From contig JBBCGK010000001.1 of NCBI GenBank assembly GCA_037200965.1, forward strand, positions 640,001 to 704,000: 64,000 bases of DNA. Reading direction: 5' to 3'. Position numbers and translations under genes: made by a program. This DNA is from a bacterium (GTDB lineage Bacteria > Patescibacteriota > Minisyncoccia > Phycocordibacterales > Phycocordibacteraceae). The stretch's first letter is position 1, and the number at the start of each line of letters is the position of its first letter. Below the pieces are notes generated by a model. That model was given only the letters and a program-made list of their open reading frames with translations, did not search any database and was not told where the DNA came from. This document shows positions 17,051-43,388 of this stretch, piece by piece.

Positions 17051-17089
17051 ACAAAAGACGGCCGCGCTACGGCCGTCTTTTGTGTTTGC
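17051..17089. terminator. bidirectional rho-independent terminator
   Basis: ACAAAAGACGGCCG-CGCTA-CGGCCGTCTTTTGT then TTTG; between convergent rpsG and hypothetical gene. Confidence 0.6.
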
Positions 17090-17151
17090 GGCGGTGAATA
17101 CAAAGCAAAGGGTACGGTCCTGAGACCGCACCCTTTCACTCACCCCTTCTC

Positions 17152-17661
17152 TTATCCGGACCGAACGAGCTGCTGTAGCACCCGCACCTGGTCTCCTTCG
17201 TACCGGGCTGCTGCCCGAAGAGTTTCGGCCGTTTTCATCCATTCCCCGATTGCGGTGTGTATGCCGGATCCGATAACCGCTCTCAGAGTACCTGGAAGGT
17301 CGTTCTTGGCCATATCGCCGCCCGGGAGGGAATCGAAGAAAGCGTCCCAAGAGAGCCTTGCGAGACAACCGTATCCGTCTATTTTTGGGGGCGGCTTCGG
17401 GCCAACCAAATACACGCGGACGAACCCGCCTTTGACGGTGACTGGTTTCCCGTCCTTGCGTTCAAGCGAGCCGGGAACGGGAGCGTCGAGCGCCGTAAGA
17501 ATTTCATAACCCGGCGGCATATCGAATGTGACGGCCGCGATTGCTTCGAGGAATGCGCGTTCGTTTCCGTCCGGGTGACGGGCGATAGCTTCGACCGGAA
17601 TGCAATGACCGGACAATTCCTCCAAGTGCGAGAAAGCGGCGATAGAGCTGATGATGCGCAT
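17152..17661 (-). CDS. hypothetical protein (169 aa)
   Basis: ORF only; cargo between rpsG and IS481-like element. Confidence 0.4.
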   Translation of the reverse strand: MRIISSIAAFSHLEELSGHCIPVEAIARHPDGNERAFLEAIAAVTFDMPPGYEILTALDAPVPGSLERKDGKPVTVKGGFVRVYLVGPKPPPKIDGYGCLARLSWDAFFDSLPGGDMAKNDLPGTLRAVIGSGIHTAIGEWMKTAETLRAAARYEGDQVRVLQQLVRSG

Positions 17662-17744
17662 GATTTCCTCCTTGCGCTAGAACGGATTTACGGAATCGAA
17701 TCCGGAAGCACCATAGCATGGCCGTCCGGTTTTTACCCTAAGCA

Positions 17745-18845: not shown

Positions 18846-18850
18846 AACCC
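17807..18850 (+). CDS. IS481-family DDE (rve) transposase (ORF in the track reads through to 19003 into the adjacent IS30)
   Basis: HTH N-term, TDNGPEF, SPKMNAFVERFNRT, RRPHESLGQVPPLRY; no stop codon before the IS30 junction. Confidence 0.7.
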
Positions 18851-19849: not shown

Positions 19850-19888
19850 AACTTTGTTGCGATTAGGGTGGGGATTCACCTACACAAC

Positions 19889-19918
19889 TTTGACAGACCT
19901 TTGTCTATAGGTTATTAT
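19889..19918 (+). promoter_or_regulatory. sigma70-like promoter TTGACA-N18-TATTAT upstream of 19963 gene
   Basis: consensus -35 and near-consensus -10 with 18-nt spacing; flanked by CCTTTGTC/GACAAAGG inverted repeat. Confidence 0.35.
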
Positions 19919-19962
19919 ATCCATGGATTCCCGAGTGGCGGGACAGACAAAGGGAGACGTGC

Positions 19963-20391
19963 ATGAACAATCCTGAATTCCGCGAACTCGCGCAGGAAAT
20001 CGATCTGTTTTTGTATTCGGCTGACGGCGAGCGCATCACCGACTATCTGAAGTTCCATGAGAAGCGTATCGTCCTGTTCCGCTCCACGGACTTGGGCGTA
20101 TACCGCTGCTACGGCCTCATGTATGCGGGCTTCGCCTGCTGGGCGGATGCCGACGTCGAGCCCGACGCTGACCCGGCGCTTCGTTCGCTTGACGCTGAGT
20201 CATTCGTCGCGCGCTGGTTCAAGGAAACGGGCGACAACTCCGCCGCGTCGCTCGTCGAAGCGATCAGGCAGGGTTATAGGCGGTTGTGCGAAGAGGATGA
20301 AAACCCCCCGCTCACTGGCCTTGTCCTCGGAATTATCGTTTTCCTCGCCGTTTTCATCTTCCTTGGACTCAAGATCACGGGTCATCTCTGA
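19963..20391 (+). CDS. hypothetical tail-anchored membrane protein (142 aa)
   Basis: single C-terminal hydrophobic helix LTGLVLGIIVFLAVFIFLGL. Confidence 0.4.
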   Translation: MNNPEFRELAQEIDLFLYSADGERITDYLKFHEKRIVLFRSTDLGVYRCYGLMYAGFACWADADVEPDADPALRSLDAESFVARWFKETGDNSAASLVEAIRQGYRRLCEEDENPPLTGLVLGIIVFLAVFIFLGLKITGHL

Positions 20392-20429
20392 CGGCCCGTT
20401 CGCAAGAACCGGTACAACACTTGGGCGCG

Positions 20430-20463
20430 GGCCCGGACCACAAATCCGGGCCTTTGCTTTTCC
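20430..20463 (+). terminator. rho-independent terminator
   Basis: GGCCCGGA-CCACAAA-TCCGGGCC then TTTGCTTTTCC. Confidence 0.5.
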
Positions 20464-20549
20464 TAGAAAACCCGCTACTCTATGGATAACGCCTCGGCGC
20501 TTTTATTTTTACCGCTTCCAGACACAACACATCCCTTACGTACTAGTAT

Positions 20550-22697
20550 ATGAACCGCGACTACCCGCTTGAGAAAGTCAGGAACTTCGGAATCATCGCC
20601 CATATCGACGCCGGAAAGACCACCACGTCCGAGCGCATTTTGTATTACACCGGTTCCCAGCACAAAATCGGCGAGGTGCACGACGGAGAGACCACGACCG
20701 ACTGGATGGAGCAGGAGCGGGAGCGCGGCATCACCATCACGGCCGCCGCCATCACCTCCTTCTGGACCCGCACCAGCGAGCCGGACAAGAAGGACGTTTC
20801 GAAAAAGTTCCGCTTCAACATCATCGACACGCCGGGACACATCGACTTCACGGTCGAGGTGAAGCGGTCCATGCGCGTCCTTGACGGCGCGGTCGTCGTT
20901 TTCGACGGCGTCGCGGGCGTCGAGCCGCAGTCGGAGACCAACTGGCGCTATGCGGACGAGGCCAATGTGCCGCGCCTCTGTTTCATCAACAAGCTCGATC
21001 GCACGGGCGCATCGTTCGAGTTCTCCTATAAGAGCATTCTCGACCGCCTCTCGAAGAAGGCCGTGCGCATGCAGATCCCGGTGGGAGAGGAAGACCAGCA
21101 CGAAGGCGTCATCGACCTCCTTTCCATGAAGGCTTTCACCTTCACGGGCAACATGGGCGACATCGTGACCGAGGGAGAGATCCCGGCGAACCTCCTTGAG
21201 GACGCGAAGAAATACCGCGCAGAGCTCATCGAGCGGATCGTCGAGCACGACGAGGCGGCGATGAGCGCGTATCTTGAGGGCAGGGAGCCCGAAGTGGCGG
21301 AGCTTAAGACGATTCTCCGCAAGGCCGTGATCGCGAACGCGATCTTCCCGGTCTTCACCGGTTCCGCGCTCAAGAACAAGGGCGTGCAGCTCGTGCTTGA
21401 CGCCGTCGTCGACTATCTCCCGTCGCCTCTCGACATGCCGCCCGTCAAAGGCATCAACCCGAAGACCGGCGAGGAGGTCGTCCGCAGGGCTTCCGACGAC
21501 GAGCCGTTCACCGCGCTTGCCTTCAAGCTCCAGACCGATCCGTTCGTCGGTGCCCTTACGTTCTTCCGCGTCTATGCGGGAACTTTGACCGCAGGCTCGT
21601 ACGTATACAACTCGACGACCGGCAGCAAGGAGCGCGTCGGCCGCATCGTGCGGCTTCAGGCTGATAAGCGCGAGGAAGTGGAGAAGGTGTTCGCGGGAGA
21701 GATCGCGGCGGCCGTAGGTCTCAAGGACACGAAGACTGCGCACACGCTCTGCGACGAGGCGAATCCGATCATCCTCGAGACTATCAAGTTCCCGGAGCCG
21801 GTGGTATCGCTTCGCATCGAGCCGAAAACCAAGGCCGACCAGGAGAAAATGGGCATGGCGCTCAAGAAGCTCTCCGACGAGGACCCGACCTTCCGCGTCA
21901 CCTCGGACGCCGAAACCATGGAGACCATCATCTCGGGGATGGGCGAGCTGCATCTCGAGATTCTGGTCGACCGCATGCAGCGGGAGTTCAACGTGGGCGC
22001 GAATGTCGGGAAGCCGCAGGTGGCATACCGCGAGACGGTGCTCGGCGCGTCCGATGCCGAAGGCAAGTACATCAAGCAGACCGGCGGCAAGGGCCAGTAC
22101 GGGCATGTGAAGATCAAGATGAAGCACCTCGAGCCTTTGGACCCTGAAGCGAAGATTCCGAAGAACGTCACGCGCGAAGCCAATTTCGAATTCATCAACA
22201 ACATCAAAGGCGGCGTGGTGCCGGCTGAGTTCATCGCTCCCGTCGAGAAGGGTATCCGCGAGTCGATGGCGCGCGGCATTCTCGCGGGCTTCCCGGTCGT
22301 CGACATCTCCGTCGACCTCTACGACGGTTCGTACCACGACGTGGACTCCTCGGAAATCGCCTTCAAGATCGCGGCATCGATGGCCTTCAAGGAAGCCGCG
22401 ACCCGCGCGAAGCCGGTGATTCTCGAGCCGATCATGAAAGTGGAGGTGGTGGTGCCGGAGAAGTTCATGGGCGACATCACGGGGAACCTCTCCGGGAAGC
22501 GCGCTTCGATCGAAGGCATGGAAGAGCGCGGCATGAACAAGGCGGTGCACGCCAAGGTGCCGCTCTCCGAGATGTTCGGGTATACGACGACGCTGCGCTC
22601 CATGACCGAGGGCCGCGGCTCCATGACCATGGAATTCGACCACTACGAAGTCGTGCCCCAAAACGTCGCGCAGGACATCATCGCGAGCAGGAAGTAG
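20550..22697 (+). CDS. fusA: elongation factor G
   Basis: [16 protein letters not shown]-domain, domains II-V; 715 aa. Confidence 0.95.
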
Positions 22698-26885: not shown

Positions 26886-27734
26886 ATGAAATCCTATCGC
26901 CCGACCAGCAAGAGCCGCCGTGCCATGACGACGCTCCCGTACAAGGAGCTCCTTTCCGGCGCGAAGCCGCATAAGCCGCTCATGGGCTCGAAGAAGCGCC
27001 AAGGGGGCCGCAACAACGCGGGCCGCGTGAGCGTCCGGCACCAGGGCGGCGGGCACAAGCGCCTCTATCGCGACGTCGATTTCAAGTACGACAAGAAAGG
27101 AATCCCGGCGAAGATCGAGACCGTCGAATATGATCCGTATCGCTCGGGCTTCATCGCGCTCGCGCTCTATGCCGACGGCGCCCGCCGCTACGTGCTCGCG
27201 CCCAAGGGTCTTTCGGTCGGCGATTCCTTCATCGTCGCCGAGGATGCGCCGCTTAAGAGCGGCAACCGACTCCCGATCGGGAAGATTCCCGTCGGCACCT
27301 TCATCTATAACGTCGAACTTCGCCCGGGCGCAGGCGCGCTTCTCGCCCGTTCTGCGGGAAACTACGCGGAAGTGGTCGCGCACGACCAGGGCTATGCTCA
27401 GGTTAAATTGCCGTCGACCGAAATCCGCAGGGTGTCCGATCTTTGCTGGGCTTCGGTGGGTTCGGTGGGGAACGAGGAATACAATCTCGTGAACCTCGGT
27501 AAGGCGGGCCGCTCGCGCTGGCTTGGCATCCGCCCGACGGTTCGCGGTACGGCCATGAACCCGGTCGACCATCCGCATGGCGGCGGCGAAGGAAGGCAGG
27601 GCCGCGGACTCAGGAGGGCGAAGAGCGCCTGGGGCAAGCCGACCGGCAAAGGCCAGAAGAGCCGCACGCCGAAGAAGTACTCGAACGTCTTCATCGTCTC
27701 GAGGAGGAAAGTCGGGAAGAAGAGGAAAGGATAA
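26886..27734 (+). CDS. rplB: 50S ribosomal protein L2
   Basis: L2 motifs GGGHKRLYR, RNPVDHPHGGGEG. Confidence 0.95.
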   Translation: MKSYRPTSKSRRAMTTLPYKELLSGAKPHKPLMGSKKRQGGRNNAGRVSVRHQGGGHKRLYRDVDFKYDKKGIPAKIETVEYDPYRSGFIALALYADGARRYVLAPKGLSVGDSFIVAEDAPLKSGNRLPIGKIPVGTFIYNVELRPGAGALLARSAGNYAEVVAHDQGYAQVKLPSTEIRRVSDLCWASVGSVGNEEYNLVNLGKAGRSRWLGIRPTVRGTAMNPVDHPHGGGEGRQGRGLRRAKSAWGKPTGKGQKSRTPKKYSNVFIVSRRKVGKKRKG

Positions 27735-28668
27735 TTTTACAAGGGTAATCCCTAATTCCTGCCACCAAACCCAGTGCCCTGAACGAGCGTGAGCAGACGC
27801 TCCTCCTGCTCGGCAAGCGTCTTCGTGCGGCGGTTGAACTTCCAGGCGATCTCTCCGACGAAGAGGTACAGATGCGTACGGCGCATGCCGCCGATGCATC
27901 CGAGACGACGCTTCAAGAGCCCCCAGAAGCCCTCGATGTTGTTCGTATGCACGTCGCCGCGTACGAGCTCTCCGCCGTCATGATCCACGTACTCGTGACG
28001 GTACCCCCGCTTCTTGAGGCCGCGGTATGTTTTGAAGCCGTCGGTATACACGTACGCTCCCTCCGGCACCAGCCGCTCGATCGTGCTGAAGATGGTCCTC
28101 CAATCAAGCTTCTTGGGGAGTATGGCGACATATACCTGTCCGGAGGTCCGCGAAAAGAGCCCGAAGATGGGAAGCTTGTCGGTCCCGTGACCGCGCTTCG
28201 TTTCCAGACGCCGGATGTGGAGACGTTTGTTCTTGCGCTGGCCGCCGATGTACGTTTCGTCCATCTCGATTGGACCGGGAAGCACGGCTGGCTGGTCAGC
28301 CGTCATGACCGTACGGAGATGGAGTGCCATGCGCTCCACGCGCGAATGCGGTATTCCCGTCTCCTCAACGATACGTTTGATCGTCCGCTCCCTGAGGAAG
28401 ACACGTATGCACTTCCGCCACTCGGCTTCCGTGCTGCGGATGCCCTCAACTGGAGCTGCGTGCCCGCTCCACTCGCGTCTGCACCGCCTGCACTTCAGTT
28501 TGTTCCTGCGGAGTTTCCAGGCACGGCGGAAGGCGCAATACGGACATACAGGAGCGGGCATATATGGTGGCACTATTAGGTATTGCACCACTGTGCCCGT
28601 CAGAGAGCCTCACGCAAGGATATTTCAAAGATATGTGGTGGCAGAGTTAGGGATTACCCTTTACAAAA
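27735..28668 (-). mobile_element. IS1595-family insertion sequence (934 bp) with ~33-bp terminal inverted repeats, inserted immediately after the rplB stop codon
   Basis: TTTTACAAGGGTAATCCCTAATTCCTGCCACCA (27735-27767) vs reverse complement of GTGGTGGCAGAGTTAGGGATTACCCTTTACAAAAG (28634-28668). Confidence 0.8.
27752..28591 (-). CDS. IS1595-family (ISXO2-like) transposase
   Basis: N-terminal CPYC...CRRC zinc ribbon, DETYIGG, HTNNIEGFWGLLKR; stop inside the IR; alternative start at 28561. Confidence 0.85.
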   Translation of the reverse strand: MVQYLIVPPYMPAPVCPYCAFRRAWKLRRNKLKCRRCRREWSGHAAPVEGIRSTEAEWRKCIRVFLRERTIKRIVEETGIPHSRVERMALHLRTVMTADQPAVLPGPIEMDETYIGGQRKNKRLHIRRLETKRGHGTDKLPIFGLFSRTSGQVYVAILPKKLDWRTIFSTIERLVPEGAYVYTDGFKTYRGLKKRGYRHEYVDHDGGELVRGDVHTNNIEGFWGLLKRRLGCIGGMRRTHLYLFVGEIAWKFNRRTKTLAEQEERLLTLVQGTGFGGRN

Positions 28669-28671
28669 GAA

Positions 28672-28700
28672 AAAGCCCCGCCAGACCGGCGGGGCTTTTT
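28672..28700. terminator. bidirectional hairpin terminator GCCCCGCC-AGACC-GGCGGGGC flanked by A- and T-runs
   Basis: 8-bp GC stem with AAAAA upstream and TTTTT downstream. Confidence 0.55.
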
Positions 28701-28709
28701 CTTTCCGGC

Positions 28710-29495
28710 TTATTGGTATTCGGGCTTCAAGATGTCCGCGAAATCGGAACGCGGCAGGCGCACGGTCTGCGGACCTATGGCATACGGGCCGACGGCGTAA
28801 GGAGGGAAGAAAATAAGGAGATCGGTACCGTCAAGCGCAAAGAACTGGAAATTTCCCGCGTCGTCCGGCGACGTTCCGGTGTCGACGAAATCCGGAAGCG
28901 CGTACTCCCCGAGCGCTGCGTACAGGAATGCCCGCGATGCTCTGGAGAGCGCGTCGAGATACGGCGCGCTACGCATGAACAGATCGCCAAGTTGGAGTGC
29001 CTTGCCGGTCGTGGAATCGAATGTGAACGTGCGGTAGTAGCTGTTGGGGTGCGCACCGAGCGTATCCTCGTAAATACTGAAGACATAGGAGAGCGTACGG
29101 GGTGACGCATATGCCGCATACTCGATATCCTGCGCGTATTTCTTATCAGGCCCGAGTTCCTGAAGTTTTATATCTTCTTCCGTAAGGTTTCCGAGGCGGT
29201 TCTGGTTCTTGAATTCCGCTTCCGCGGCCAGTACCCATGTCTCCATGACCTTTGCCGCATGTGCGTCCGCCTCCGCCCCGGCGGTTACAAGAAGCGGGGT
29301 TGATGCGGGATAGATGGCGTCGATGAGGTAGTAGTCGGCGTGGTCCGCAACCGTCTTGGAGGTCGTAGTTGCATTTTCCCCGGAAGGGACAGGGGCCACT
29401 CCGGGTGCCGGATTCTCGGCCATGTACCAGAGAAGGCAGGCAAGTATGGCAACCAGCACCGCACCGAGCGCGATCCGTTCGCAAGTGGTGTTCAT
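28710..29495 (-). CDS. membrane-anchored DUF3298/RsiV-like domain protein
   Basis: N-terminal anchor; C-terminal region resembles the DUF3298 family; recognition from memory only. Confidence 0.4.
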   Translation of the reverse strand: MNTTCERIALGAVLVAILACLLWYMAENPAPGVAPVPSGENATTTSKTVADHADYYLIDAIYPASTPLLVTAGAEADAHAAKVMETWVLAAEAEFKNQNRLGNLTEEDIKLQELGPDKKYAQDIEYAAYASPRTLSYVFSIYEDTLGAHPNSYYRTFTFDSTTGKALQLGDLFMRSAPYLDALSRASRAFLYAALGEYALPDFVDTGTSPDDAGNFQFFALDGTDLLIFFPPYAVGPYAIGPQTVRLPRSDFADILKPEYQ

Positions 29496-29599
29496 GCGAG
29501 AAAGTGTAGCACCCGCATATCAGGGAAAAATGAAGGGCTCCGGAATAGCCAAATGAAAGGGCCCGGGCGGTAATGCCACCCGGGCCCCCCAACGAAGGC

Positions 29600-30049
29600 T
29601 TAAGATTTGCAGGGACCTGTCCCGCAGGTTTTGCAACTTTTGCACGTTCCGTGTCTTATCCCTTTTCTCTTTCGGGAATTTCGCGCCTCTTCTCCGGGCA
29701 TGGCTTCGCCGAAGCGCGCGAAATAGAGCTTCGAGGTTCTCGCGTACCCTCTGCGGGAGCTTGCGTTCGGCTCAAGTTCAGGCTGATGGTGGAGGAAACC
29801 GCCGAAGACCGTCTGACAGTCCGAAGCGTACTTCTTCGTCATCAGGATATGTTCATGCCAGGCCCAGTCGATCATGTGAGACGGTGCCAGAGATTTGCGC
29901 GGATTTTCGCGGCAAAGCGTGTAGAACCGGCGCAAACCGAGAACGCACATCTTTGCGACCGGTTCGGTAAGACGCAAGGCAAGTTTGTGCTCCACTGCCC
30001 CGAGGTCGAGTCTCCGGATAGCGCTTGGAAGGTTCTTTTTGACGGCCAT
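29600..30049 (-). CDS. small DUF1399-like protein with Cys-rich C-terminal tail
   Basis: DWAWHEHILMTKKYASDC..FGGFLHH resembles the WHxHxL motif of GRDP/DUF1399; tail HGTCKSCKTCGTGPC. Confidence 0.3.
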   Translation of the reverse strand: MAVKKNLPSAIRRLDLGAVEHKLALRLTEPVAKMCVLGLRRFYTLCRENPRKSLAPSHMIDWAWHEHILMTKKYASDCQTVFGGFLHHQPELEPNASSRRGYARTSKLYFARFGEAMPGEEARNSRKRKGIRHGTCKSCKTCGTGPCKS

Positions 30050-30257
30050 CTCGGCCTCCTGCTGTGATTGCCGTTCCAGAGTAGCAAGGCGCGCAGCACC
30101 AGGTCAACCATAGAATCATACAAGTATAATGTGTTTTGTCTACGTTTTAAAACGGCCTTGCAAGTACGAGCTCTTTTGAAACGGTACGATTTGACTCTTT
30201 ATCCCGGCTCCTGTATCTTGCACCTATCTCGCGCTATGCGCGGGCTTTACCTTACTC

Positions 30258-30608
30258 ATGTCCCGATCGCTCAAGAAAGGTCCCTACGTGGACGCGAAGC
30301 TCATAAAGAAGCTTCGCGACAAGAAACCGGCTACCGCCGGGGTGATTAAGACGTGGGCGAGAGGTTCCCAGATCGCCCCGGAGATGGTCGGCTTCACGTT
30401 CGGCGTCTATAACGGACAGAAGCACCTCGAGGTGCTCGTCTCCGAGGAGATGGTAGGGCACCGCCTCGGCGAATTCTCCCCGACCAAGAAGTTCGTCCGG
30501 CACGGAGGCAAGATGCAGAAGGAGCTCGAGCAGAAGCGCCAGGAGTCCGAGATCGCGTCCGCGAAGGCCGCCTCAGCCGCTCCTGCCAAGGCCCCGGCAA
30601 AGAAATAA
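30258..30608 (+). CDS. rpsS: 30S ribosomal protein S19 with Ala/Lys-rich C-terminal extension
   Basis: SLKKGPYVD...KHLEV. Confidence 0.9.
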
Positions 30609-32971: not shown

Positions 32972-33190
32972 ATGAAAATGAAGATAAAAAAGAACGACAA
33001 GGTGCAGGTGATCACGGGAAAGGACAAGGGCAAGACCGGCTCGGTCGTGCGCGTCATCCCCAGGGAAAACCGCGTCGTCGTCGAAGGCGTCGCGGTCGCC
33101 AAGCGCCACCGCAAGGGGCAGGGCGGCCAGTCCGGCCGCATCACCGAGGCTCCGCGCCCGATACACGCGTCGAACGTAAAGAAGGTCTAA
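32972..33190 (+). CDS. rplX: 50S ribosomal protein L24
   Basis: [20 protein letters not shown]. Confidence 0.85.
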
Positions 33191-33200
33191 TCCCGCTCCT

Positions 33201-33761
33201 ATGATGCTTTCCAAACAAAAACAGCAGACCTCCTTCGAAGCTCTCTCGGCTGATTTCGGCTATACGAGCCGCATGCAGGCGCCGCGCATCGAGAAGGTCG
33301 TCGTCTCCTCGGGAGTCGGCAAGAAGCGCGACAAGAAGCAGCTCGAACTCATTTCCGAGCGCCTCGCCCGCATCACGGGCCAGAAGGCGGCACCGCGCGC
33401 GGCAAAGCAGTCGATCGCGCAGTTCAAGATGCGCGCGGGCGATACGGTCGGATACCAGACGACGCTCCGCGGGGCGCGCATGTTCGATTTCCTCGACAAG
33501 CTCATTCACATTGCCTTGCCGAGAACCAGGGACTTCCGCGGCCTTCCCGCGACCGCGATCGACGACATGGGCAACCTCACGATCGGCATCCGCGAGAACA
33601 CCATCTTCCCGGAGACTTCCGACGAGGACCTCAAGGACGTGTTCGGGCTTGCCGTGACCATCGTCACGACCGCGAAGTCGAAGAAGGAGGCCGATGCGTT
33701 CTTCCGCCACCTTGGCGTGCCGCTTCGCCCGGCTGAGGAGCAGAAGAAGGGGAAGAAATAA
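33201..33761 (+). CDS. rplE: 50S ribosomal protein L5
   Basis: L5 sequence. Confidence 0.9.
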   Translation: MMLSKQKQQTSFEALSADFGYTSRMQAPRIEKVVVSSGVGKKRDKKQLELISERLARITGQKAAPRAAKQSIAQFKMRAGDTVGYQTTLRGARMFDFLDKLIHIALPRTRDFRGLPATAIDDMGNLTIGIRENTIFPETSDEDLKDVFGLAVTIVTTAKSKKEADAFFRHLGVPLRPAEEQKKGKK

Positions 33762-33785
33762 AAAAGTTTTAAAATGCAGGGAGCC

Positions 33786-33814
33786 TTGACGGGAGTCAGG
33801 GCTCTTTGTATCAT
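33786..33814 (+). promoter_or_regulatory. sigma70-like promoter TTGACG-N17-TATCAT directly after rplE
   Basis: good -35/-10 with 17-nt spacer, upstream of island gene A. Confidence 0.4.
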
Positions 33815-33895
33815 ATATTCGGATACTTCACATTCTCGGATAGTGACGTTAACGGTATCCACGTCGAGCGTCCGATGGCATCAAGGAGATGTGTC

Positions 33896-34309
33896 ATGCG
33901 GTTTGTCTGTGATCTTGAGGATTTGTTCTGGATGAGTAATAGATACGAGCATACTGCCAGCAATGAGATCAGGCAGGCGCTTCTTGCCGGAAAGGATACG
34001 GACGGAACTCCGCGCTGGACGATTCCGGGGGCTGGAATGTTCAATCTTGCCCAAGTCCTCTGGTCGGGCCAAAACTCGGTTGGCCATGAAGAGGACTGCG
34101 CACGAGACCGTATGTTCACCAGTCTCGAGCTCATGCGTCGACTGGGCCACGCCCGTGCACGCTCGCAGGCTGTGTTTTTTCTCGTCATTCTCCGGAGGAT
34201 GGAGCGCGAGAACAGCGACTCCATCGAAATCAATATCCCGTGGACCCGTGCGAAGACGAGGTGCATGTATGTCAAACGGAAACCAAATATCGAATTCGGT
34301 CTGGTATAA
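33896..34309 (+). CDS. hypothetical protein A (137 aa) of the rplE-rpsN island
   Basis: ATG with AAGGAG RBS 7 nt upstream; hairpin terminator 34316-34341 downstream. Confidence 0.45.
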   Translation: MRFVCDLEDLFWMSNRYEHTASNEIRQALLAGKDTDGTPRWTIPGAGMFNLAQVLWSGQNSVGHEEDCARDRMFTSLELMRRLGHARARSQAVFFLVILRRMERENSDSIEINIPWTRAKTRCMYVKRKPNIEFGLV

Positions 34310-34556
34310 CCGGACAGGGCGCGGCGGAACTTTCCGCCGCGCCCATCGTGTGTATGGGTCACCATTCTATATCAGGTACATACGAGTGAATTTGACGTAC
34401 TAAGTTATACATACCTTTTTTACGAATTAGTCCTGCAAGTGCTAATTTCTGGCAGCAGAATTGTTCCAATATCCTAAAGGAAACCCCGCAAAGCTTGGTT
34501 GCTTTGCGGGGCTCGACCGGAGGTCGATTTTTCAAACAAGGCTTAGTATGTCCGGT

Positions 34557-35348
34557 TCAGGTTTTGGGGTCGATGCTCATCGCGCGCGGTATCGATTTCC
34601 GTTGCCAGTTGTCGATTTTTCGCCTATCAGAACTCCTGCCGATTATGTATAAGACGAGTGAGATGATGCATACGGCCACGCCCGGGCCGAAGGAACCGAT
34701 GTCCAAAGCCTCCCCGGCCCACACACACAGGGCAAGGTATATGAAGCCCGTAGCACCGAGCACGTAGCTGACAGCCGTTAAACCGTTGCTCTCGCTCTCT
34801 TTGCGCCGATACGAGGTTAACAGGGATTCGGCGATCGGGAGTTCGCTTCCCGGTCCTTCATCCCACGCGGCAAGAGGATATACCCGGCCATCGTGAGCTC
34901 GGCCCACGAGCAGGCTCGGCCCGCTCGTGCCGAATGCGCCGGACTCATACTTGGGATACTCGGGAAGAGACTGACTGATCCAGACCTCGATGTCGGCGAA
35001 GCAGTCCAGCCAATTTACCCATTCCAGACCTTCGAGTACTTTGCGGGGGAATTTTTGCCCGTACCATGCTCGATAGGTCGTGCTGTAGGCATAACCATGG
35101 TACGTGTTCACAGTGCGCACTTTGCGGACACACTGCCACCCTTTCTGAGCCGAGAATTTCCCGGGAAGAGAGCATCTCCACTGGCTCAGGGAATTGGGGT
35201 CGAAGGGTTCGAGAAGCGGAACATGCCTACGAATTTCTTCGATCCGGTTAAGCCGAGGCAGCGCCATGAGTGCGTTCCTCGCATCCGCGTTCAGCGTCCG
35301 TCCGTAGGCGGCGACTGCTTCGATTCTTCGGGATTGGTATTCAGCCAT
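34557..35348 (-). CDS. hypothetical protein B (263 aa) with two C-terminal TM helices
   Basis: start ATG overlaps the upstream gene stop (TGATG coupling); C-terminal hydrophobic helices AVSYVLGATGFIYLALCVWA and VAVCIISLVLYIIG; terminator hairpin 34479-34510. Confidence 0.45.
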   Translation of the reverse strand: MAEYQSRRIEAVAAYGRTLNADARNALMALPRLNRIEEIRRHVPLLEPFDPNSLSQWRCSLPGKFSAQKGWQCVRKVRTVNTYHGYAYSTTYRAWYGQKFPRKVLEGLEWVNWLDCFADIEVWISQSLPEYPKYESGAFGTSGPSLLVGRAHDGRVYPLAAWDEGPGSELPIAESLLTSYRRKESESNGLTAVSYVLGATGFIYLALCVWAGEALDIGSFGPGVAVCIISLVLYIIGRSSDRRKIDNWQRKSIPRAMSIDPKT

Positions 35349-35956
35349 CACACGTCCTCCTTGCTCGGAGCCGCGACGAACGCGACCCAGTTGTGCCACG
35401 AGATTTCGGTCGGGACGGAGCCCTGCGAATTCTTGAGGCTGCAGAGGGAGGAATAGAAGTAGTTGATGAGGCCGGCCGGATTGCCGTTGAGCGGTTCCGT
35501 GACGAACGCCACGAAGCTGCCGTCGGGTATGCGCGGGTCGTGCCCGAGATCGTCCGCGAGCCGCGGGCGCTCTGCGAACAATGCGTCTCGATACTCGACC
35601 GGTGCGGGAACGAGGCTGGCCTTCTGGCCGTATTCCTCGATCTGCCCGGGCCTGAGCCGACCGTTTTTGCCCGAATCGCCGAAGCGGACGAGCATGAGGG
35701 TTTTGTCCTCACCGCCGATCGCGATCCTCACCGCGCAGGCCTTGCCGCCTTTCGGCGGGTCGATCCGCGCCGTGGTCGCGATCTCGCTATAGAGCCCGGA
35801 GAGCTCTGCGAGAACACGCTCAAGCCTGCTGCTATGCGCGGGCTTGACCACCGCGGCGAGCAGCTCATTCAGGTCTGCGCCGGTTTGCCCGCGAACGAGC
35901 TCGCCGATCTGACCGAGCGCCCCGAAGAGCACCGTGGCCGTGACAGGTTTTGGCAT
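35348..35956 (-). CDS. hypothetical protein C (202 aa), translationally coupled to B
   Basis: ORF with 1-nt stop/start overlap with B; no recognisable domain. Confidence 0.45.
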   Translation of the reverse strand: MPKPVTATVLFGALGQIGELVRGQTGADLNELLAAVVKPAHSSRLERVLAELSGLYSEIATTARIDPPKGGKACAVRIAIGGEDKTLMLVRFGDSGKNGRLRPGQIEEYGQKASLVPAPVEYRDALFAERPRLADDLGHDPRIPDGSFVAFVTEPLNGNPAGLINYFYSSLCSLKNSQGSVPTEISWHNWVAFVAAPSKEDV

Positions 35957-36272
35957 GACACTTCCTTTCTATGAACCCCTCACTCCTTAGCGAAGCCCCA
36001 GGTTCAACAGCCTTACCTCCACCCGATTGTGGCGGTTTCAGCGCGCAACAGCCCACTTTAGTGAGCCCCTGAGCGCTGAAACCGCCCCTAGCCTTGTTTT
36101 CAAGGGACGTATCTATCTAAGAGTGTATACTATATATCATATCTTGTCAAGTTTTCCGTAATGGTTCAATACCTTGGATGATTCCAGGGTATTGACAGAT
36201 AATACTGTATGTGCTAACGTTACTTAAGCGTTCGGGCCGCTCTTTTCAGCTCGGAACCAATGGAGGAACATC

Positions 36273-36668
36273 ATGAACAAGATTTATCTGGCTATCATGG
36301 CCGTCATTTCCCTCTCCGGCATCGCCCTGGCCTTCAGCCCCGAGGCGGTGTTCGAGAGCGCTTCCCGGGTTGACCCGGGCGGCACCCTGTCGTTCGCGAA
36401 CTTCTCCTTCTGGACGTGCGTCTGCATCGGGGGCGTCGTTTTCTTCTTCTCCCGTCGCGGATCACAAGGAAAAGAAATCGCGAGGATCGGCTTGCTTCTC
36501 GGAGCCGCGGCCGCGTGCCTTGCGCTCATGTCGCTCACTCACTACTTCGCGTACTGGCATCAGGGCCTCGCGACGATGCTGGGCATCATCTTCTTCGTCT
36601 CCCCGCTGCTCGGCATCGCGATCGCGCTGTCCGACCGACAGCAGACATCGGTTCCGAACGGAGGCTGA
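36273..36668 (+). CDS. small membrane protein D (131 aa, 4 TM)
   Basis: hydrophobic helices; hairpin GGAGGCTGAAGCCTCC just downstream. Confidence 0.45.
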   Translation: MNKIYLAIMAVISLSGIALAFSPEAVFESASRVDPGGTLSFANFSFWTCVCIGGVVFFFSRRGSQGKEIARIGLLLGAAAACLALMSLTHYFAYWHQGLATMLGIIFFVSPLLGIAIALSDRQQTSVPNGG

Positions 36669-37522
36669 AGCCTCCGGTCAAGGACTCGGTTCGCACGCAG
36701 GTACGGCCCCACGCAATTCGGCGTGGGGTCTTTTGGATATATTCGACGCCGCCGGATATATATATAGTGTCCTTCCCGTTCGAGATATCGGCTGGTACGA
36801 TCAAGGATCCGGCACGTCCTCGGCTTGTGCAATGTCATCAAGCCGTAGTTGCGCTTGAACCAGTCCTCAATCGCAACACCTTCCAAACCCTCGGCGCGGT
36901 GTCTTCCGGCGAAGACACTTGCGAGGCTGGTGATTGAGAAGGCAGGTCACGCGGTCAGCCTGTCGCTGGGACAGCGCTCCGAGTTCCATGTCCTCGGGAA
37001 AGAACCGGCGCAGCTGTTCTCGCATGCACCCCGCTCCCAGGGATGATGGGGACGGGCGAAGTATACCCGGGCATTGGTATCGCGCTCAATGAACTGCCAG
37101 AGCGTGAACCCGGTACCACGATCGTACGTGATGGTATGTGCAGGAAGATCAGGAAGCGCTCCTCGCGCTTCCTGGTGCACCGTGTTCGTTTCGTCGTCAG
37201 ACACGAGCCGCGCCCGCAAGGAACCCGCCTCTTTCGGTCAACACGGGCCAGAAACCTTGCACGGTCGCGTCCGACCGCGGTATGGTCTCGTCGGATATGA
37301 TGCGTCCCTCTTCGGTGATCTGTTCGGGCGGTCAGCGCGCAGAAGCGCGGACAGAAACACCCGCTCGTCGCGTGTCAAGTGATGATGCGTTGAAGGCCCG
37401 AATGATGGATACCATTCGGGCTTGAAGACAGAAGCATTGCGTTTCAAGCTCGGATTTAAGCTATGATTTAGCGTTGACGCGGGTTGAACCCCGGGCAAAG
37501 CAGGCGCGGACCTCGTTCTCAT
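36560..37522 (-). pseudogene. degenerate IS30-family transposase remnant (multiple frameshifts)
   Basis: fragments ITYDRGTGF...YFARPHHPWERGACEN (36947..37219) and an HTH-like LTRDERVFLSALLRA (37238..37522), collinear with intact IS30 transposases but in different frames. Confidence 0.55.
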
Positions 37523-37674
37523 CCATTTTCGCGAAGTTCGTGATTTCGGTAAAGTTGTTTAGGCCGTCTGACGAAAGATTATCCCGCTTGGCCGCTCGAC
37601 CAAGCAGGGCTCCTGTTTGACGCCCCGTAACCTATTTGATACAGTGTCCTGAAGCTCCGCGGAGCTATTTTTGT

Positions 37675-37944
37675 ATGGCTAAAACCTCCCAGCTTGCCCG
37701 GTACGCCAAGAAGGCGAAACTGGTCAAAAAGTACGCCGCCAAGCGCGCGGCTCTTAAGGCTGCCGGTGACTCTGAGGGCCTCCAGAAGCTCCCGCGGAAC
37801 TCCTCCCCGGTTCGTTTGAAGAGCCGCTGCGCCGTTTCCGGCCGCTCCCGCGGGTATCTCCGGGCGTTCGGCCTCTCCCGCATCCAGTTCCGCGAGATGG
37901 CGAGGGAAGGGAAGATTCCGGGCGTAAAGAAGGCGTCGTGGTAA
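37675..37944 (+). CDS. rpsN: 30S ribosomal protein S14
   Basis: [15 protein letters not shown]...[26 protein letters not shown]. Confidence 0.85.
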
Positions 37945-37948
37945 GCGT

Positions 37949-38353
37949 ATGATCACGGACCGCGTCGGAGATTTCATCGTGCGACTCAACAATGCCGGAG
38001 CGGTCCGGAAGCCGTCCGTCTCGCTTCCGTATTCGGCGCATCTCGAAGCGATCGCGAAGAAGCTCAAGGCGCTCGGGTACGTCGAAAGCGTGGACGTTAT
38101 CGCAAACGAGAAGACCCCGGCGAAGCGCACGCTCGACGTCGTACTCGCTTATGACGCGCAGGGCGTCTCGAAGATCCACGGCGTGAAGCGCGTATCGAAG
38201 CCCGGCCGCCGCCTCTATGCCGCAGGGAAGGACGCGCACAGCGTCAAAAACGGAGTCGGCGTCCGCGTGCTCTCGACCCCGAAGGGAATCCTTTCGGACC
38301 GCGAGGCGAGGAAGCAGCAGGCCGGAGGAGAAACCCTTTTCGATATCTGGTAA
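37949..38353 (+). CDS. rpsH: 30S ribosomal protein S8
   Basis: MITDRVGDFIVRLNNA... Confidence 0.9.
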   Translation: MITDRVGDFIVRLNNAGAVRKPSVSLPYSAHLEAIAKKLKALGYVESVDVIANEKTPAKRTLDVVLAYDAQGVSKIHGVKRVSKPGRRLYAAGKDAHSVKNGVGVRVLSTPKGILSDREARKQQAGGETLFDIW

Positions 38354-38368
38354 TTCTTTTATTTTCGT

Positions 38369-38902
38369 ATGTCACGCCTCGCAAAAAAGCCCGTCGTTCT
38401 CGCTTCCTCCACCCAGGTTTCGGTGGCTGACGGCGTGCTGTCGGTCAAAGGCCCCAAGGGAACGCTCACGCGCCCGGTCCATTCCTTCGTTTCGATCGAA
38501 GTGACTCCCGAAGGCGTGCAGGTTTCGCCAAGAAACAACAGCAAGCTCTCCAAGGCGCTCACGGGCACCTTCGTCGCGCATGTGCGCAACATGGCTGCGG
38601 GCGTCGTGACGCCGTTCAGGAAGAGCCTTATCCTTGAAGGCGTGGGCTATAAGGTCGAGCTTGCGGGGAAGGAGCTCGTGCTCTCGGTCGGCTTCTCGCA
38701 TAAGGTGAAGCTTCCGGTTCCCGAAGGCATCACGGCGACCATCGAGAAGAACACGATTCATTTCGACAGTCCCGACAAGGACGCGCTCGGCCAGTTCGCG
38801 GCAGTCGTCCGTGCCGTGAAGCCGCCGGAACCGTATCTTGGCAAGGGCTTCCGCTATTCGGACGAGAAGATCCTCCGGAAGCAGGGGAAGAAGGCAGTCT
38901 AA
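38369..38902 (+). CDS. rplF: 50S ribosomal protein L6
   Basis: L6 sequence. Confidence 0.9.
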   Translation: MSRLAKKPVVLASSTQVSVADGVLSVKGPKGTLTRPVHSFVSIEVTPEGVQVSPRNNSKLSKALTGTFVAHVRNMAAGVVTPFRKSLILEGVGYKVELAGKELVLSVGFSHKVKLPVPEGITATIEKNTIHFDSPDKDALGQFAAVVRAVKPPEPYLGKGFRYSDEKILRKQGKKAV

Positions 38903-39268: not shown

Positions 39269-39892
39269 ATGGCTGACGACACCATCATGACTCCCGAGAC
39301 CGAAGTACAGGACGCGCCGGTTGAAGCGGCGCCCGAAGCCGCCGTTGAGGCGGAAGCTGCGGCTACGCCCGAGAAGACCGCGGTTCGCGGCCGCGCTCCG
39401 CGCGGGCGCGGAGGCCCCGGGGGCCAGCGCCGCTCGAACCGCCTTCCCCGCGAGCGCGGGGAGTTCGACTCGGTCAATATCGACGTGCGCCGCGTGGCGC
39501 GCGTCATGGCCGGAGGCCGCCGCTTCAACTTCAGCGTCGCGGTCGTAATCGGTGATAAGAAGGGGAGGGTCGGCGTCGGACTCGGGAAGGCCGCGGACAC
39601 CGCGCTCGCGATTGACAAGGCGACGCGCGACGCGAAGAAGCATATGTTCACCGTGCCGCGCACCGACTCGGGCTCCATCCGCCACGAGGTCCAGGCGAAG
39701 TACGCGTCCTCGACGGTGGCGGTCATCCCGTCGAAGGGCCGCGGTCTCGTCGCCGGAAGCGCGATGCGCACCGTGCTCGAGCTCGCGGGCGTCTCCGATG
39801 TCGTCACCAAGATCCTCTCGCGCACCAAGAACAAGCTCACTATCGCCCGCGCGACGGTAGCGGCTTTGAAGAAGCTCCGCACCCGCTCATAA
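39269..39892 (+). CDS. rpsE: 30S ribosomal protein S5 with acidic/Ala-rich N-terminal extension
   Basis: S5 core VVIGDKKGRVGVGLGKA. Confidence 0.9.
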   Translation: MADDTIMTPETEVQDAPVEAAPEAAVEAEAAATPEKTAVRGRAPRGRGGPGGQRRSNRLPRERGEFDSVNIDVRRVARVMAGGRRFNFSVAVVIGDKKGRVGVGLGKAADTALAIDKATRDAKKHMFTVPRTDSGSIRHEVQAKYASSTVAVIPSKGRGLVAGSAMRTVLELAGVSDVVTKILSRTKNKLTIARATVAALKKLRTRS

Positions 39893-39899
39893 CATTTCC

Positions 39900-40358
39900 A
39901 TGCAGTTCAACAACCTCAAATCGAATCACTCCCGCCCGAAAAGCACCGTCGTCGGACGCGGCGGCAAGCGCGGCAAGACTTCCGGACGCGGTGGCAAGGG
40001 CCAGACCGCGCGTGCGGGCCACAAGATACGGCCGGAGATGCGCGACATCATCAAGAAGCTCCCGAAGCGCCGCGGATACGGCAGGAACCGCAGCCGCACC
40101 GTCCGTCGCGACCGCGGCGGATACGCGCCGGTCAATCTCGCCGCGCTTGAGGCGACGTTCGCCGCGGGCGACGCCGTCACCCCTTCGATCCTCGTGAAGA
40201 AGGGTCTCGTCCGGGCCCTCTCCGGCCGCGCCCCGCTCGTGAAGATCCTCGGCACCGGGGAGCTCACCAAGGCGCTCTCCATCTCGGGATGCGAAGCGTC
40301 CGCGAGCGCCAGGAAGGCGATAGAGGCTGCGGGCGGCTCGCTCGTATCCCATGCTTAA
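39900..40358 (+). CDS. rplO: 50S ribosomal protein L15 (no L30 gene precedes it)
   Basis: L15 sequence; 7-nt gap from rpsE. Confidence 0.9.
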   Translation: MQFNNLKSNHSRPKSTVVGRGGKRGKTSGRGGKGQTARAGHKIRPEMRDIIKKLPKRRGYGRNRSRTVRRDRGGYAPVNLAALEATFAAGDAVTPSILVKKGLVRALSGRAPLVKILGTGELTKALSISGCEASASARKAIEAAGGSLVSHA

Positions 40359-41625: not shown

Positions 41626-41642
41626 AAACTCTACCTATCGTC

Positions 41643-41670
41643 AAACAGCCGGAGCGTGCTCCGGCTGTTT
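41643..41670 (+). terminator. hairpin AAACAGCCGGAG-CGTG-CTCCGGCTGTTT after secY
   Basis: perfect 12-bp stem ending in TTT. Confidence 0.5.
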
Positions 41671-41727
41671 GACATTGAGAGCGAATCGTTATATTTTTGC
41701 CGCAGATACCAAGTTTGCGAGGTTCCC

Positions 41728-42117
41728 ATGCTCTCCCTGCTCCAACTGTTCGGGTTCGGCGCAAGACCGAAAAAGCCCGTACCGTCTCCTTTGCCCCAAC
41801 ATAGCCGGGATGCGGTCTCACTTCCTCGGGTGCTCGAAGAAGCGCGTCGGTCGTGCCTGAACGATGACGGCACGATCAGTGTGAAGAAGCTCCGTTCGAT
41901 ATTTCCCGTGCTCTCGCCTTTTTATATCGTCTTCAACGAAAAAGGAAAGGCACAGGCACAAAGAGAGGGGGTAGTCTACAACCGACCGAACCTGTCGAGT
42001 GTGTTCGCAAGCCCGGATTCGGGCATGCCGGTGGTGTGCGGTTACCTGTGCGTTGTCATTGAACGCACGCCGGATTACATGCTGGTCGACCGCGAATTCA
42101 ATCTCAGGCTGAGATAA
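41728..42117 (+). CDS. hypothetical protein (129 aa)
   Basis: ORF only; start at internal ATG of the 41656..42117 ORF. Confidence 0.3.
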   Translation: MLSLLQLFGFGARPKKPVPSPLPQHSRDAVSLPRVLEEARRSCLNDDGTISVKKLRSIFPVLSPFYIVFNEKGKAQAQREGVVYNRPNLSSVFASPDSGMPVVCGYLCVVIERTPDYMLVDREFNLRLR

Positions 42118-42185
42118 GCGTTATCGGTTCTCAGGTATCGTTCGAAAGTCCGCGGGCCAGCCATTCGGCTGGCCCTTGTTTGTTT

Positions 42186-42752
42186 TTACGCACTAGCGCT
42201 TTGCCAGCCGCGAAAGGCGCCAAGCACCATAGCGACCACAGTCTCCAGATTATTGTGCGTCGTGTTGATAACCGCGTCGAACTGGGTTGTATCGTACACG
42301 TTCACTCCGTAGAGTGCGGAATAGCGCCGCGTCTCGCTTGCCGTTCTGACTTCCGTATTTTCCCTGATCTCGGCAGCTGAGGATCCTTCCTGGCTCACCC
42401 TCCCTTGATCGCGAATATGGGCATAAATTCTTTCGGCCGCGCTTTGCGGATCGACATAGAGGAACACTTTGAATGATTCGGGAATCCAGTGAAAGGCAAG
42501 CCGGGAGTCTATGACGAGCTTCTCCTTCCCGTTCATGTTTTTCAGGAGTTCGTCCACTCCGTGATCGACATCGTTGCGCTCTTCAAGCGAAAGATTCATC
42601 GCCTCGATGGAAAGGCCGCGCTCCGCGGCTATCTGGCGGAACAGGTCGCCCGAGGAGAAATGTTCGTACCCGAGTGCGGCGGCGACCGCTTTGGCCGTGG
42701 AAGATTTACCGCTACCGATAGAACCCGCGATCGTGATGATTTGAGGCTTCAC
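42186..42752 (-). CDS. cmk: cytidylate kinase
   Basis: P-loop ITIAGSIGSGKSS and NMP-binding segment; antisense to the flanking secY/adk. Confidence 0.7.
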   Translation of the reverse strand: MKPQIITIAGSIGSGKSSTAKAVAAALGYEHFSSGDLFRQIAAERGLSIEAMNLSLEERNDVDHGVDELLKNMNGKEKLVIDSRLAFHWIPESFKVFLYVDPQSAAERIYAHIRDQGRVSQEGSSAAEIRENTEVRTASETRRYSALYGVNVYDTTQFDAVINTTHNNLETVVAMVLGAFRGWQSASA

Positions 42753-42800
42753 GTTTCCGTGATTATAGCCGCACCAAGCCTTTTTTGCTACACTCCCCGT

Positions 42801-43388
42801 ATGACAGACTCAGGCGCCCTGGGCGCGGTGCTATTCGTCGGCAGGCCTGGATCCGGCAAGGGTACGCAGGCGCACATGCTTGCCGCACGCCTTGGCTGGC
42901 CGCTTTTTTCCTCGGGCAACCACTTCAAAGACCTTATTTTGAAGGCTACGCCGCTTGGCGAGCGCATACGCGACGACTATAACCGCGGCAAGCTTTCTCC
43001 GGACTGGATCGCCGATTATTTCTTCGAGGAAGCGATTCTTTCGCTTCTCCCCGGGCAGGGGCTCGTTTCCGAGGGCTTCCCCCGGTCGCTTCCGCAGGCG
43101 GAACTCGCGGACGAAGTGCTTGCGTGGCTCGGGCGTCCCTACAAAGTCATACACCTCGCCGTATCCGAAGACTCCGCCCTTACGAGGCAGCTCGGGCGCG
43201 CGAAGACGGAACATCGTCCCGACAGCGATGCTGATGAGAAGATACGGGGCCGGTTCGACGTTTACCGCACCCATACCGAGCCGGTTCTGGATTTCTTCAG
43301 GACGCGAGGCGCGCTCATAGATATCGACGGAGAGAAGGCTCCCGAACAGATCGCATCGGATATCGCGCGCGCCCTGGAACTTTCATGA
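42801..43388 (+). CDS. adk: adenylate kinase (short, lid-less type)
   Basis: GRPGSGKGTQA P-loop; start ATG at 42801 inside the 42489..43388 ORF. Confidence 0.8.
   Translation: MTDSGALGAVLFVGRPGSGKGTQAHMLAARLGWPLFSSGNHFKDLILKATPLGERIRDDYNRGKLSPDWIADYFFEEAILSLLPGQGLVSEGFPRSLPQAELADEVLAWLGRPYKVIHLAVSEDSALTRQLGRAKTEHRPDSDADEKIRGRFDVYRTHTEPVLDFFRTRGALIDIDGEKAPEQIASDIARALELS

Follow-up and report, generated by a model that had tools for sequence, protein, structure and literature searches.

Organization of the rplE–rpsN region

The window analyzed here, a 64,000 bp stretch (positions 640,001 to 704,000 of contig JBBCGK010000001.1, assembly GCA_037200965.1) from a bacterium of the candidate phyla radiation (CPR), carries an insert in the ribosomal spc operon, between the rplE and rpsN genes. 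The canonical bacterial spc operon has the order rplN-rplX-rplE-rpsN-rpsH-..., and gene order and content in the window are canonical on both sides of the insert, with rpsC, rplP, rpmC, rpsQ, rplN, rplX, and rplE forming an S10-spc run that ends at 33761, and rpsN, rpsH, rplF, rplR, rpsE, rplO, and secY continuing it from 37675. Unlike the canonical operon, rplE and rpsN are separated by 3,913 bp in the open reading frame (ORF) map, and rpsN has its own promoter, such that the operon is transcriptionally split. The insert contains four genes (A–D) and part of a transposase gene, and it lies at a junction whose content varies across the lineage. The features of the region are listed below; Pfam labels of the flanking ribosomal genes were read off an identical Logan contig (L001), and GC3 is the GC content at third codon positions.

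33201-33761, + strand: rplE (uL5), left core flank (ORF; Pfam Ribosomal_L5 on the identical gene in L001)
33786-33814, + strand: sigma-70-like promoter TTGACG-N17-TATCAT upstream of A (consensus scan, 10/12 matches)
33896-34309, + strand: gene A, 137 aa, basic, soluble (AAGGAG 7 nt before ATG; best of three frames; GC3 0.63)
34317-34344, no strand assigned: GC-rich hairpin of 12 bp downstream of A, lacking a U-tract (z = -7.9 in a fold of 34300-34560)
34483-34510, - strand: 11-bp hairpin with a T-rich run behind it, probably terminating the C-B transcript (sequence and fold)
34513-34527, + strand: terminator-like site adjoining the C-B hairpin
34557-35348, - strand: gene B, 263 aa, with a Trp-rich N-terminal domain of ~185 aa, two transmembrane (TM) helices, and a basic C-terminal tail (GC3 0.66)
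35348-35956, - strand: gene C, 202 aa, soluble, acidic, no hydrophobic segment (AAGGAA 5 nt before ATG; GC3 0.82)
36031-36086, - strand: imperfect hairpin with 27-nt arms, presumed 5' leader of C (inverted repeat; fold z = -5.35)
36122-36150, - strand: sigma-70-like promoter TTGACA-N17-TACACT upstream of C-B (consensus scan, 10/12 matches)
36273-36668, + strand: gene D, 131 aa, four hydrophobic helices (GGAGGA 5 nt before ATG; hydropathy; GC3 0.82)
36705-36730, + strand: intrinsic terminator after D (10-bp stem, 8 GC pairs, then TTTTGG)
36867-37219, - strand: frameshifted 3' third of an IS30-family transposase gene, a pseudogene (NCBIfam NF033563, two frames)
37617-37645, + strand: host promoter TTGACG-N17-TACAGT with TG, restarting rpsN and the distal spc genes (consensus scan; homologous in relatives)
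37653-37666, + strand: small tetraloop hairpin and U-tract right before the rpsN ATG, native leader
37675-37944, + strand: rpsN (uS14), right core flank (ORF; Pfam Ribosomal_S14 on the identical gene in L001)

An earlier note on this DNA had described a four-gene island ending in a decayed IS30 transposase where rpsN normally abuts rplE, and the insert and its features are indeed found where that note placed them. This includes the pair formed by a soluble C of 202 aa and a B of 263 aa ending in two TM helices, the small divergent protein D with four hydrophobic segments, and the promoter and ribosome-binding site of gene A. Two points need revision: the final ~60 nt of the island are the native host leader of rpsN and not cargo, and the terminator ascribed to gene A is a hairpin that has no U-tract and is not a canonical intrinsic terminator.

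The junction is supported by three assemblies. The source is a metagenome-assembled genome, in which misjoins are often caused by insertion sequence (IS) elements, such that the insert might be suspected to be an assembly or binning chimera. However, the source contig is 960 kb long, and the same arrangement of rplE, island, and rpsN was assembled independently in Logan SRR28211700 (7,975 nt, 100% identical) and in GCA_015655515.1 (3,662 nt, 1 mismatch). Because the same junction recurs in independent assemblies, a misassembly or chimera is excluded, and we consider the probability of an artifact negligible. The island is identical or nearly so in all three, with no disruptive polymorphism among them. 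The window uL5 is at best 80–83% identical to those of Kaiserbacteria/Paceibacterota (CPR), which places the host in this group; no relatives with more than 83% uL5 identity, sought to date the insertion, were found in the genome or metagenome collections. No RNA gene is detected by Rfam (E<=1) over 33000-38500, no tRNA attachment site by a tRNA scan of the whole window, and no Pfam match among antisense and alternative-frame ORFs of the island; a blastn comparison of the island with phage and plasmid collections gives no match.

The rplE|rpsN junction is a variable site

The spacing of rplE and rpsN was compared in two partly overlapping sets of loci from relatives. Among 76 species-representative loci the spacer is 34–49 nt in 44 and 50–230 nt in eight, and cargo of 500–2,300 nt is present in 24; the corresponding counts for 68 metagenome loci are 35, five, and 28, with cargo in this set being anything longer than 230 nt. 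Grouped by content, the 53 occupied loci (the window included) make up 30 unrelated sets, and 22 of these have a single member. As a control, 18 consecutive junctions from rplW to adk were examined, and 15 of these never exceed 200 bp; the three that do are rplB|rpsS (50 of 60 loci), rplE|rpsN (25 of 76), and secY|adk (12 of 58). The rplB|rpsS gap in relatives, with a median of ~1 kb, is thereby occupied even more often than rplE|rpsN. Since most junctions are invariant and few vary, rplE|rpsN is a specific, recurrent variable site, and it has the properties of a variable hotspot: content that varies between fixed core flanks, site specificity, and compositional deviation together with a mobility gene. 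In the clade containing the window in a neighbor-joining tree of eight ribosomal proteins, all twelve loci are split and each has a different content, with two of the twelve having the promoter only.

The cargo of the gap in relatives is diverse. It includes ParE with a small upstream partner, MazF/PemK, a HicB-like UPF0150 protein, DUF5678 together with a retropepsin-like protease, a DnaG zinc-ribbon fragment, a methyltransferase, and secreted or membrane orphan ORFs (ORFans). The commonest cargo, at 11 loci (L013, L017, L069, L090, L091, L101, L120, and L121 among them), is a PaaX/Cas2-like protein of ~195 aa encoded on the minus strand, with an N-terminal TM helix and the PaaX central Cas2-like domain (PF20803, E=2.3e-20).

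A conserved promoter and leader hairpin precede rpsN

At empty loci, rplE (ending ...CGCTGA) is followed by ~36 nt containing a GCUC-(C/U)UCG-GAGC hairpin and a U-tract, and then by the rpsN ATG. Cargo loci retain the hairpin and have, directly upstream of it, a conserved sigma-70-type promoter of the form TTGAC(G/A)-N17-(TG)ATACATT or GATACAGT. This restart promoter is found at 46 of 52 cargo loci (22/24 in genomes and 24/28 in metagenomes) and at none of 79 empty loci (0/44 and 0/35), and four loci have the promoter without cargo. In addition, rplE is directly followed by an intrinsic terminator in many of the occupied loci.

A direct tally finds the leader hairpin, with a stem of 4–5 bp and a (C/U)UCG tetraloop, no more than 40 nt from the rpsN start in 126 of the 145 loci, and its stem variants (GCCC/GGGC, GACGC/GCGUC) include a few compensatory ones. 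It has no match in Rfam, and RNAalifold on a MAFFT alignment yields no consensus structure for it. By its appearance it may be a mini terminator, an attenuator, or an rpsN leader. Five loci (L006, L014, L034, L052, and L120) have a palindromic element of ~75 nt (...CCCAGCGAGCGAGGG...CCCGAGCGAGCGCAGGAAGCAAG...) between the hairpin and the rpsN start, which resembles repeats of the miniature inverted-repeat transposable element (MITE) or repetitive extragenic palindromic (REP) type.

The relatives of genes A and D are solitary

The promoter-like site of gene A begins 25 nt past the rplE stop codon. As no terminator separates the two, transcription from rplE could read through into A. Among 434 gap ORFs, A matches the sole cargo ORF of locus L163 (phmmer E=2.3e-5), and the gap protein of L044 joins the family upon iteration. 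The three proteins align end to end and share the motif F-x3-EL-x2-R...D-x-I-x-I-x3-W, and the relatives are the only cargo of the rplE|rpsN gap in both loci, with that of L163 in the opposite orientation. An alignment of the A family has no match in the PDB by profile search, nor does the family match IMG/VR. Gene A thus appears to be a single-gene cassette of a tiny family known only from this gap.

The wider search for homologues was a HMMER search of 1.84 billion cluster representatives, for which one artificial concatenate of C, B, A, and D was used as the query; within it, A finds only itself. Gene D has homologues in the same collection: P0005, of equal length and 52% identical, and P0006, 27% identical (25% in a separate alignment). 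Both are solitary genes on other CPR-like contigs, in unrelated neighborhoods that contain no A, B, or C, and D is a member of a small family of solitary membrane proteins.

The coupled genes C and B

Genes C and B are the only pair in the island that look translationally coupled. The plus-strand sequence CATCA at 35346-35350 is TGATG on the minus strand, overlapping the C stop and B start codons, and an AAGGAGG lies within the end of C, 7 nt before the B ATG. The two hydrophobic helices of B are C-terminal, at residues 191–209 and 217–235 by hydropathy. By the positive-inside rule B would have an N-in/C-in topology, with both its N-terminal domain and its basic tail in the cytoplasm, and C is predicted to be cytosolic. 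The 27-nt-arm hairpin at 36031-36086 stands between the divergent promoter-like sites of C and D.

Neither protein has detectable relatives. B and C recover only themselves in a word-indexed search of 5.8 billion proteins and in the HMMER search with the concatenate, and they have no relatives among 19,103 ORFs from 1.7 Mb of related ribosomal neighborhoods and no match in IMG/VR or among PDB sequences. The earlier note had proposed structure prediction for these proteins, and the single-sequence AlphaFold2 models are unusable, with a predicted local distance difference test (pLDDT) score of 35.6 for C and 34.6 for B. The residues D66...E83-D-K85 of C were considered as a PD-(D/E)xK-like nuclease motif, and this candidate was dropped, as it rested on a degenerate motif and a pLDDT-35 model.

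With respect to type II toxin-antitoxin modules, C and B are adjacent and co-oriented, their stop and start codons overlap, and they have their own promoter-like site. Neither belongs to a recognized toxin or antitoxin superfamily (RelE/ParE, MazF, HicA, VapC, ... or RHH, HTH, Phd, AbrB) in Pfam, NCBIfam, PHROGs, or the PDB.

Family assignments and coding status

The four genes are not assignable to known families. None of A–D gives anything beyond sub-threshold noise (such as Maf_N and SPW) in Pfam, NCBIfam, PADLOC, or PHROGs, and 0 families of the PADLOC-DB v2 defense profiles are hit at E<=1. This bears out the statement in the earlier note that none has a motif of a known family, as do the PDB searches with B, C, and the A family.

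For each of the four genes the annotated frame scores higher than the other two. GC3 of C and D is host-like (ribosomal genes, 0.78–0.88) and that of A and B is atypical, and the codon scores of A and B are near zero. As ORF length alone is insufficient proof, the coding status of A and D is backed by their homologues; B and C are argued to be coding, or to have been so recently, from their length, intact coupling, and ribosome-binding sites.

The IS30 remnant and other insertions in the window

The transposase gene at the right end of the island is a remnant in which stop codons and a frameshift are present and ~100 codons are left. The part at 36947-37219 (minus strand) matches positions 166–232 of the 267 of NF033563 (E=5.7e-15), and the continuation at 36867-37025, in another frame, matches positions 235–267 (E=0.0096). 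The C-terminal DDE region is thus recognizably that of the IS30 family, of which intact copies are present elsewhere in the window, and the remnant is 43% identical to the intact IS30 at 18868-19839. Unlike an intact IS30, it has no N-terminal helix-turn-helix (positions 1–165 match in no frame of 36669-37640), and neither terminal inverted repeats nor a target-site duplication was detected; no convincing direct or inverted repeats bound either the remnant or the island. The decayed IS30 transposase of the earlier note is therefore present, with the model covered over positions 166–267 only. The reconstructed fragment has no match in the word-indexed search of 5.8 billion proteins.

The window contains six transposase genes or fragments, at 6989-7891, 11231-12274, 17807-19003, 18868-19839, 27752-28591, and 36867-37219: two IS481-like, two intact IS30, one IS1595, and the IS30 fragment. 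This is a high IS load for a CPR bacterium (six in 64 kb, in a genome with a main contig of 960 kb). The rpsG|fusA and rplB|rpsS junctions are likewise interrupted by IS-linked islands, whose contents are as follows.

17030-20549: third island, from rpsG (16565-17029) to fusA (20550-22697)
17152-17661, - strand: ORFan with a Shine-Dalgarno sequence
17807-19003, + strand: IS481-like transposase
18868-19839, - strand: intact IS30 transposase, overlapping the end of the IS481-like gene
19963-20391: 142-aa ORF with no assigned family
27735-30257: second island, from rplB (26886-27734) to rpsS (30258-30608)
27752-28591, - strand: IS1595 transposase
28710-29495, - strand: DUF3298 protein
29600-30049, - strand: ORFan with a Shine-Dalgarno sequence

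IS30 is the likely vehicle for at least one of the insertions. Because no duplications or terminal repeats survive, we only infer that IS elements delivered the DNA.

Shine-Dalgarno sequences distinguish cargo from core genes

All four island genes have strong Shine-Dalgarno sites (A, AAGGAG; B, AAGGAGG; C, AAGGAA; D, GGAGGA); among the remaining 71 gene calls of the window, four do (Fisher p=5.8e-5). These four include an IS481-like transposase and two genes without a Pfam match, and the ribosomal protein genes, fusA, tuf, and secY have no Shine-Dalgarno sequence. The same contrast is seen in relatives (L003–L167), where a Shine-Dalgarno of at least 5 nt precedes 18 of 1,549 core gene starts (1.2%) and 9–16 of 46 cargo ORFs; core start codons are instead preceded by U-rich stretches (e.g. 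TTTTCGT-ATG). Since strong sites occur in a genome whose own genes do not have them, the island genes are probably imports from donors that use Shine-Dalgarno sequences. An anti-Shine-Dalgarno motif was detected in only 48% of Parcubacteria by Tsurumaki et al. (PMC9297842), which fits the island sites being signatures of a donor. The GC content of the island is 0.57, compared with 0.63–0.645 for the flanking ribosomal genes.

Interpretation of the island

We interpret the 3.9 kb insert, with a probability of roughly 0.75, as strain-specific accessory DNA that was gathered piecemeal in a permissive gap of the spc operon, one that is variable throughout the lineage. The island is a mosaic in which we count no fewer than three independent modules (A, C-B, and D) besides the 3' third of an IS30 transposase gene: the relatives of A and D are solitary, coupling is confined to C and B, and a promoter-like site and a hairpin or terminator accompany each unit separately. 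In part of the lineage the spc operon would be naturally split at rplE|rpsN, with transcription of rpsN onward restarted by the conserved promoter and leader hairpin. The gap between terminator and promoter would be transcriptionally insulated, such that inserts would not starve the downstream ribosomal genes; insertions would therefore be tolerated, and foreign modules could lodge there and turn over quickly. In this scheme A and D would be passengers unrelated to C-B.

Several observations weigh against this interpretation. The window lacks a terminator directly after rplE, unlike many relatives, and no target-site duplication, terminal inverted repeat, or attachment site delimits the island or any of its modules. 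C and D are host-like in codon use, and may be old residents or not foreign at all. As the genome and metagenome sets overlap in part, the occupied counts are not all independent, and the rough neighbor-joining tree of 71 taxa, with at least 14 changes between occupied and empty states, bears on whether the split is ancestral or was repeatedly gained. For the function of C-B in particular, the lack of any family match and models at a pLDDT of ~35 count against a confident proposal.

The earlier note had favored the island as a single undescribed system, with mobile-element cargo as the alternative, and it is the latter that the evidence favors. That A, B, C, and D form one multi-gene system, such as anti-phage defense, delivered as a unit, could be argued from their proximity between the same two core genes, from the Shine-Dalgarno sites at all four, from the lack of a known family for any of them, and from the frequency of toxin-antitoxin genes in this gap in relatives. 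We nevertheless consider it very improbable: the genes are in mixed orientations with separate promoter-like sites and hairpins or terminators, GC3 is 0.63–0.66 in A and B and 0.82 in C and D, the relatives of A stand alone in the rplE|rpsN gap in either orientation and those of D stand alone elsewhere without A, B, or C, and there is no PADLOC match. A narrower proposal, which we hold tentatively and with low confidence, is that C-B by itself constitutes a new module of two genes, of the toxin-antitoxin or abortive-infection type, in which B would be a membrane-disrupting effector and the upstream C an antidote or sensor. The pair would be a selfish system of toxin/antidote-like or abortive-infection-like character working on the cytoplasmic side of the membrane, with B the membrane effector and C its neutralizer or sensor, a guess made because the rplE|rpsN gap of relatives often holds toxin-antitoxin genes (ParE, MazF, HicB-like, and DUF5678/protease modules). 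The TGATG overlap and internal AAGGAGG imply that the two are translated in a coupled manner and in a fixed ratio, the order of a soluble protein encoded upstream of a two-TM protein with a cytoplasmic domain fits such modules, and the pair has its own promoter-like site and terminator-like hairpin. Set against these, no toxin-antitoxin or defense model matches, 202 and 263 aa are large for classical type II pairs, GC3 is unequal between the two coupled genes, there are no homologues and hence no signal of conservation or co-occurrence, and the structure models are unusable.

The genes could also serve ordinary lineage-specific accessory functions of an episymbiotic CPR cell, in membrane or envelope physiology or host interaction. 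Uncharacterized membrane proteins are plentiful in CPR genomes, and B and D are both membrane proteins; several secreted or membrane ORFans occur among the cargo of relatives; and C and D are codon-adapted to the host. Small proteins are likewise abundant, with a length peak at ~100–150 aa (PMC9297842). We regard this explanation as doubtful, as no surface exposure is obvious (the domain and tail of B are predicted to be cytoplasmic and C cytosolic) and the extreme turnover, with 30 content groups in 53 loci, better fits dispensable or selfish cargo. Alternatively, part or all of the ORF set, A and B above all, could be non-functional: passengers in decay, or ORFs that are young or due to chance, within junk that a transposon brought in and that is kept only because the gap is neutral. 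The near-zero codon scores of A and B and their GC3 below that of the ribosomal genes, the absolute orphan status of B and C, the clear decay of the adjacent IS30 gene, and the lack of a confident AlphaFold2 fold are all in its favor, and if the host has no anti-Shine-Dalgarno, imported Shine-Dalgarno sites would not work. It is nonetheless unlikely, since base composition gives an intact ORF of 263 codons a chance expectation of ~0.02 in 3.9 kb, the annotated frame outscores its alternatives in every gene, A and D have full-length homologues, the start codons of all four genes lie at Shine-Dalgarno spacing with the C-B overlap intact, and the three assemblies show no disruptive polymorphism.

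A stronger combined version of these ideas is that C-B founds a new CPR-specific class of membrane-tethered two-gene toxin/antidote or abortive-infection systems and that rplE|rpsN and rplB|rpsS are dedicated cassette-docking sites in the ribosomal operons of Kaiserbacteria. The hairpin, U-tract, and promoter would then be an insertion target or an expression platform for selfish or defense modules, and the junctions not merely neutral gaps. Taken jointly, we consider these two propositions quite unlikely to hold.

Relationship to known systems

Variable hotspots between core genes are known from pan-genome work, for example the defense-island hotspots of E. coli (PMC10121019), and rplE|rpsN is a new site of this known class. 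As at such hotspots, the same two core genes flank the site throughout; many relatives have nothing there, and others have unrelated, fast-turning cargo that is enriched in toxin-antitoxin or selfish modules and accompanied by mobile-element debris. It is unlike those hotspots in lying inside the ribosomal spc operon and being paired with a conserved restart promoter and leader hairpin, in the size of its cargo (~0.5–4 kb, usually one or two genes), and in that no integrase, tRNA, or attachment site is evident and the island has no recognized defense system.

The C-B pair resembles type II toxin-antitoxin modules such as ParDE, MazEF, and HicAB in its overlapping stop and start codons, its own promoter-like site, and its position at a hypervariable site beside IS debris. 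It differs in that B and C match no family and are much larger than typical pairs, and in that the downstream partner is a membrane protein with two TM helices, where such modules have a soluble RNase or gyrase poison. Two-gene abortive-infection or defense systems with a transmembrane effector are a general class, and C-B is similar to these in having a soluble protein beside one anchored by two C-terminal TM helices, the two apparently being co-translated, but it has no PADLOC match and no recognizable sensor or enzymatic domain.

The unusual traits of the rplE|rpsN hotspot are its location inside the spc operon and its conserved restart promoter, and a literature search for an rplE/rpsN hotspot or for operon insertions in Kaiserbacteria found nothing relevant. 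The island itself consists of orphan genes of an uncultured CPR bacterium, a common kind that is not generalizable without relatives, and is of modest interest; the hotspot, and the contrast in Shine-Dalgarno use between cargo and core genes, are more useful to carry forward. The Kaiserbacteria-like ribosomal super-operon is otherwise rigid, and foreign genes gather at three junctions (rplB|rpsS, rplE|rpsN, and secY|adk), showing that marker-gene synteny is not inviolable in CPR lineages. Gaps between universally binned markers such as these offer a simple harvest of accessory, toxin-antitoxin, and candidate defense genes from thousands of fragmentary CPR assemblies. Shine-Dalgarno-led cargo in genomes lacking these sequences is a cheap marker of import, and raises the question of how, or whether, it is translated.

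Other features of the window

The secY|adk junction of the window (41626-42488) contains an ORF at 41656-42117 with no Pfam match. In the adjacent adk ORF (42489-43388), ~116 aa precede the ADK domain as an N-terminal extension, and the start of this ORF may be mis-called. At 39269-40358, rplO comes immediately after rpsE, with rpmD (uL30) missing between the two; the absence of uL30 is a trait of all CPR (PMC9297842).

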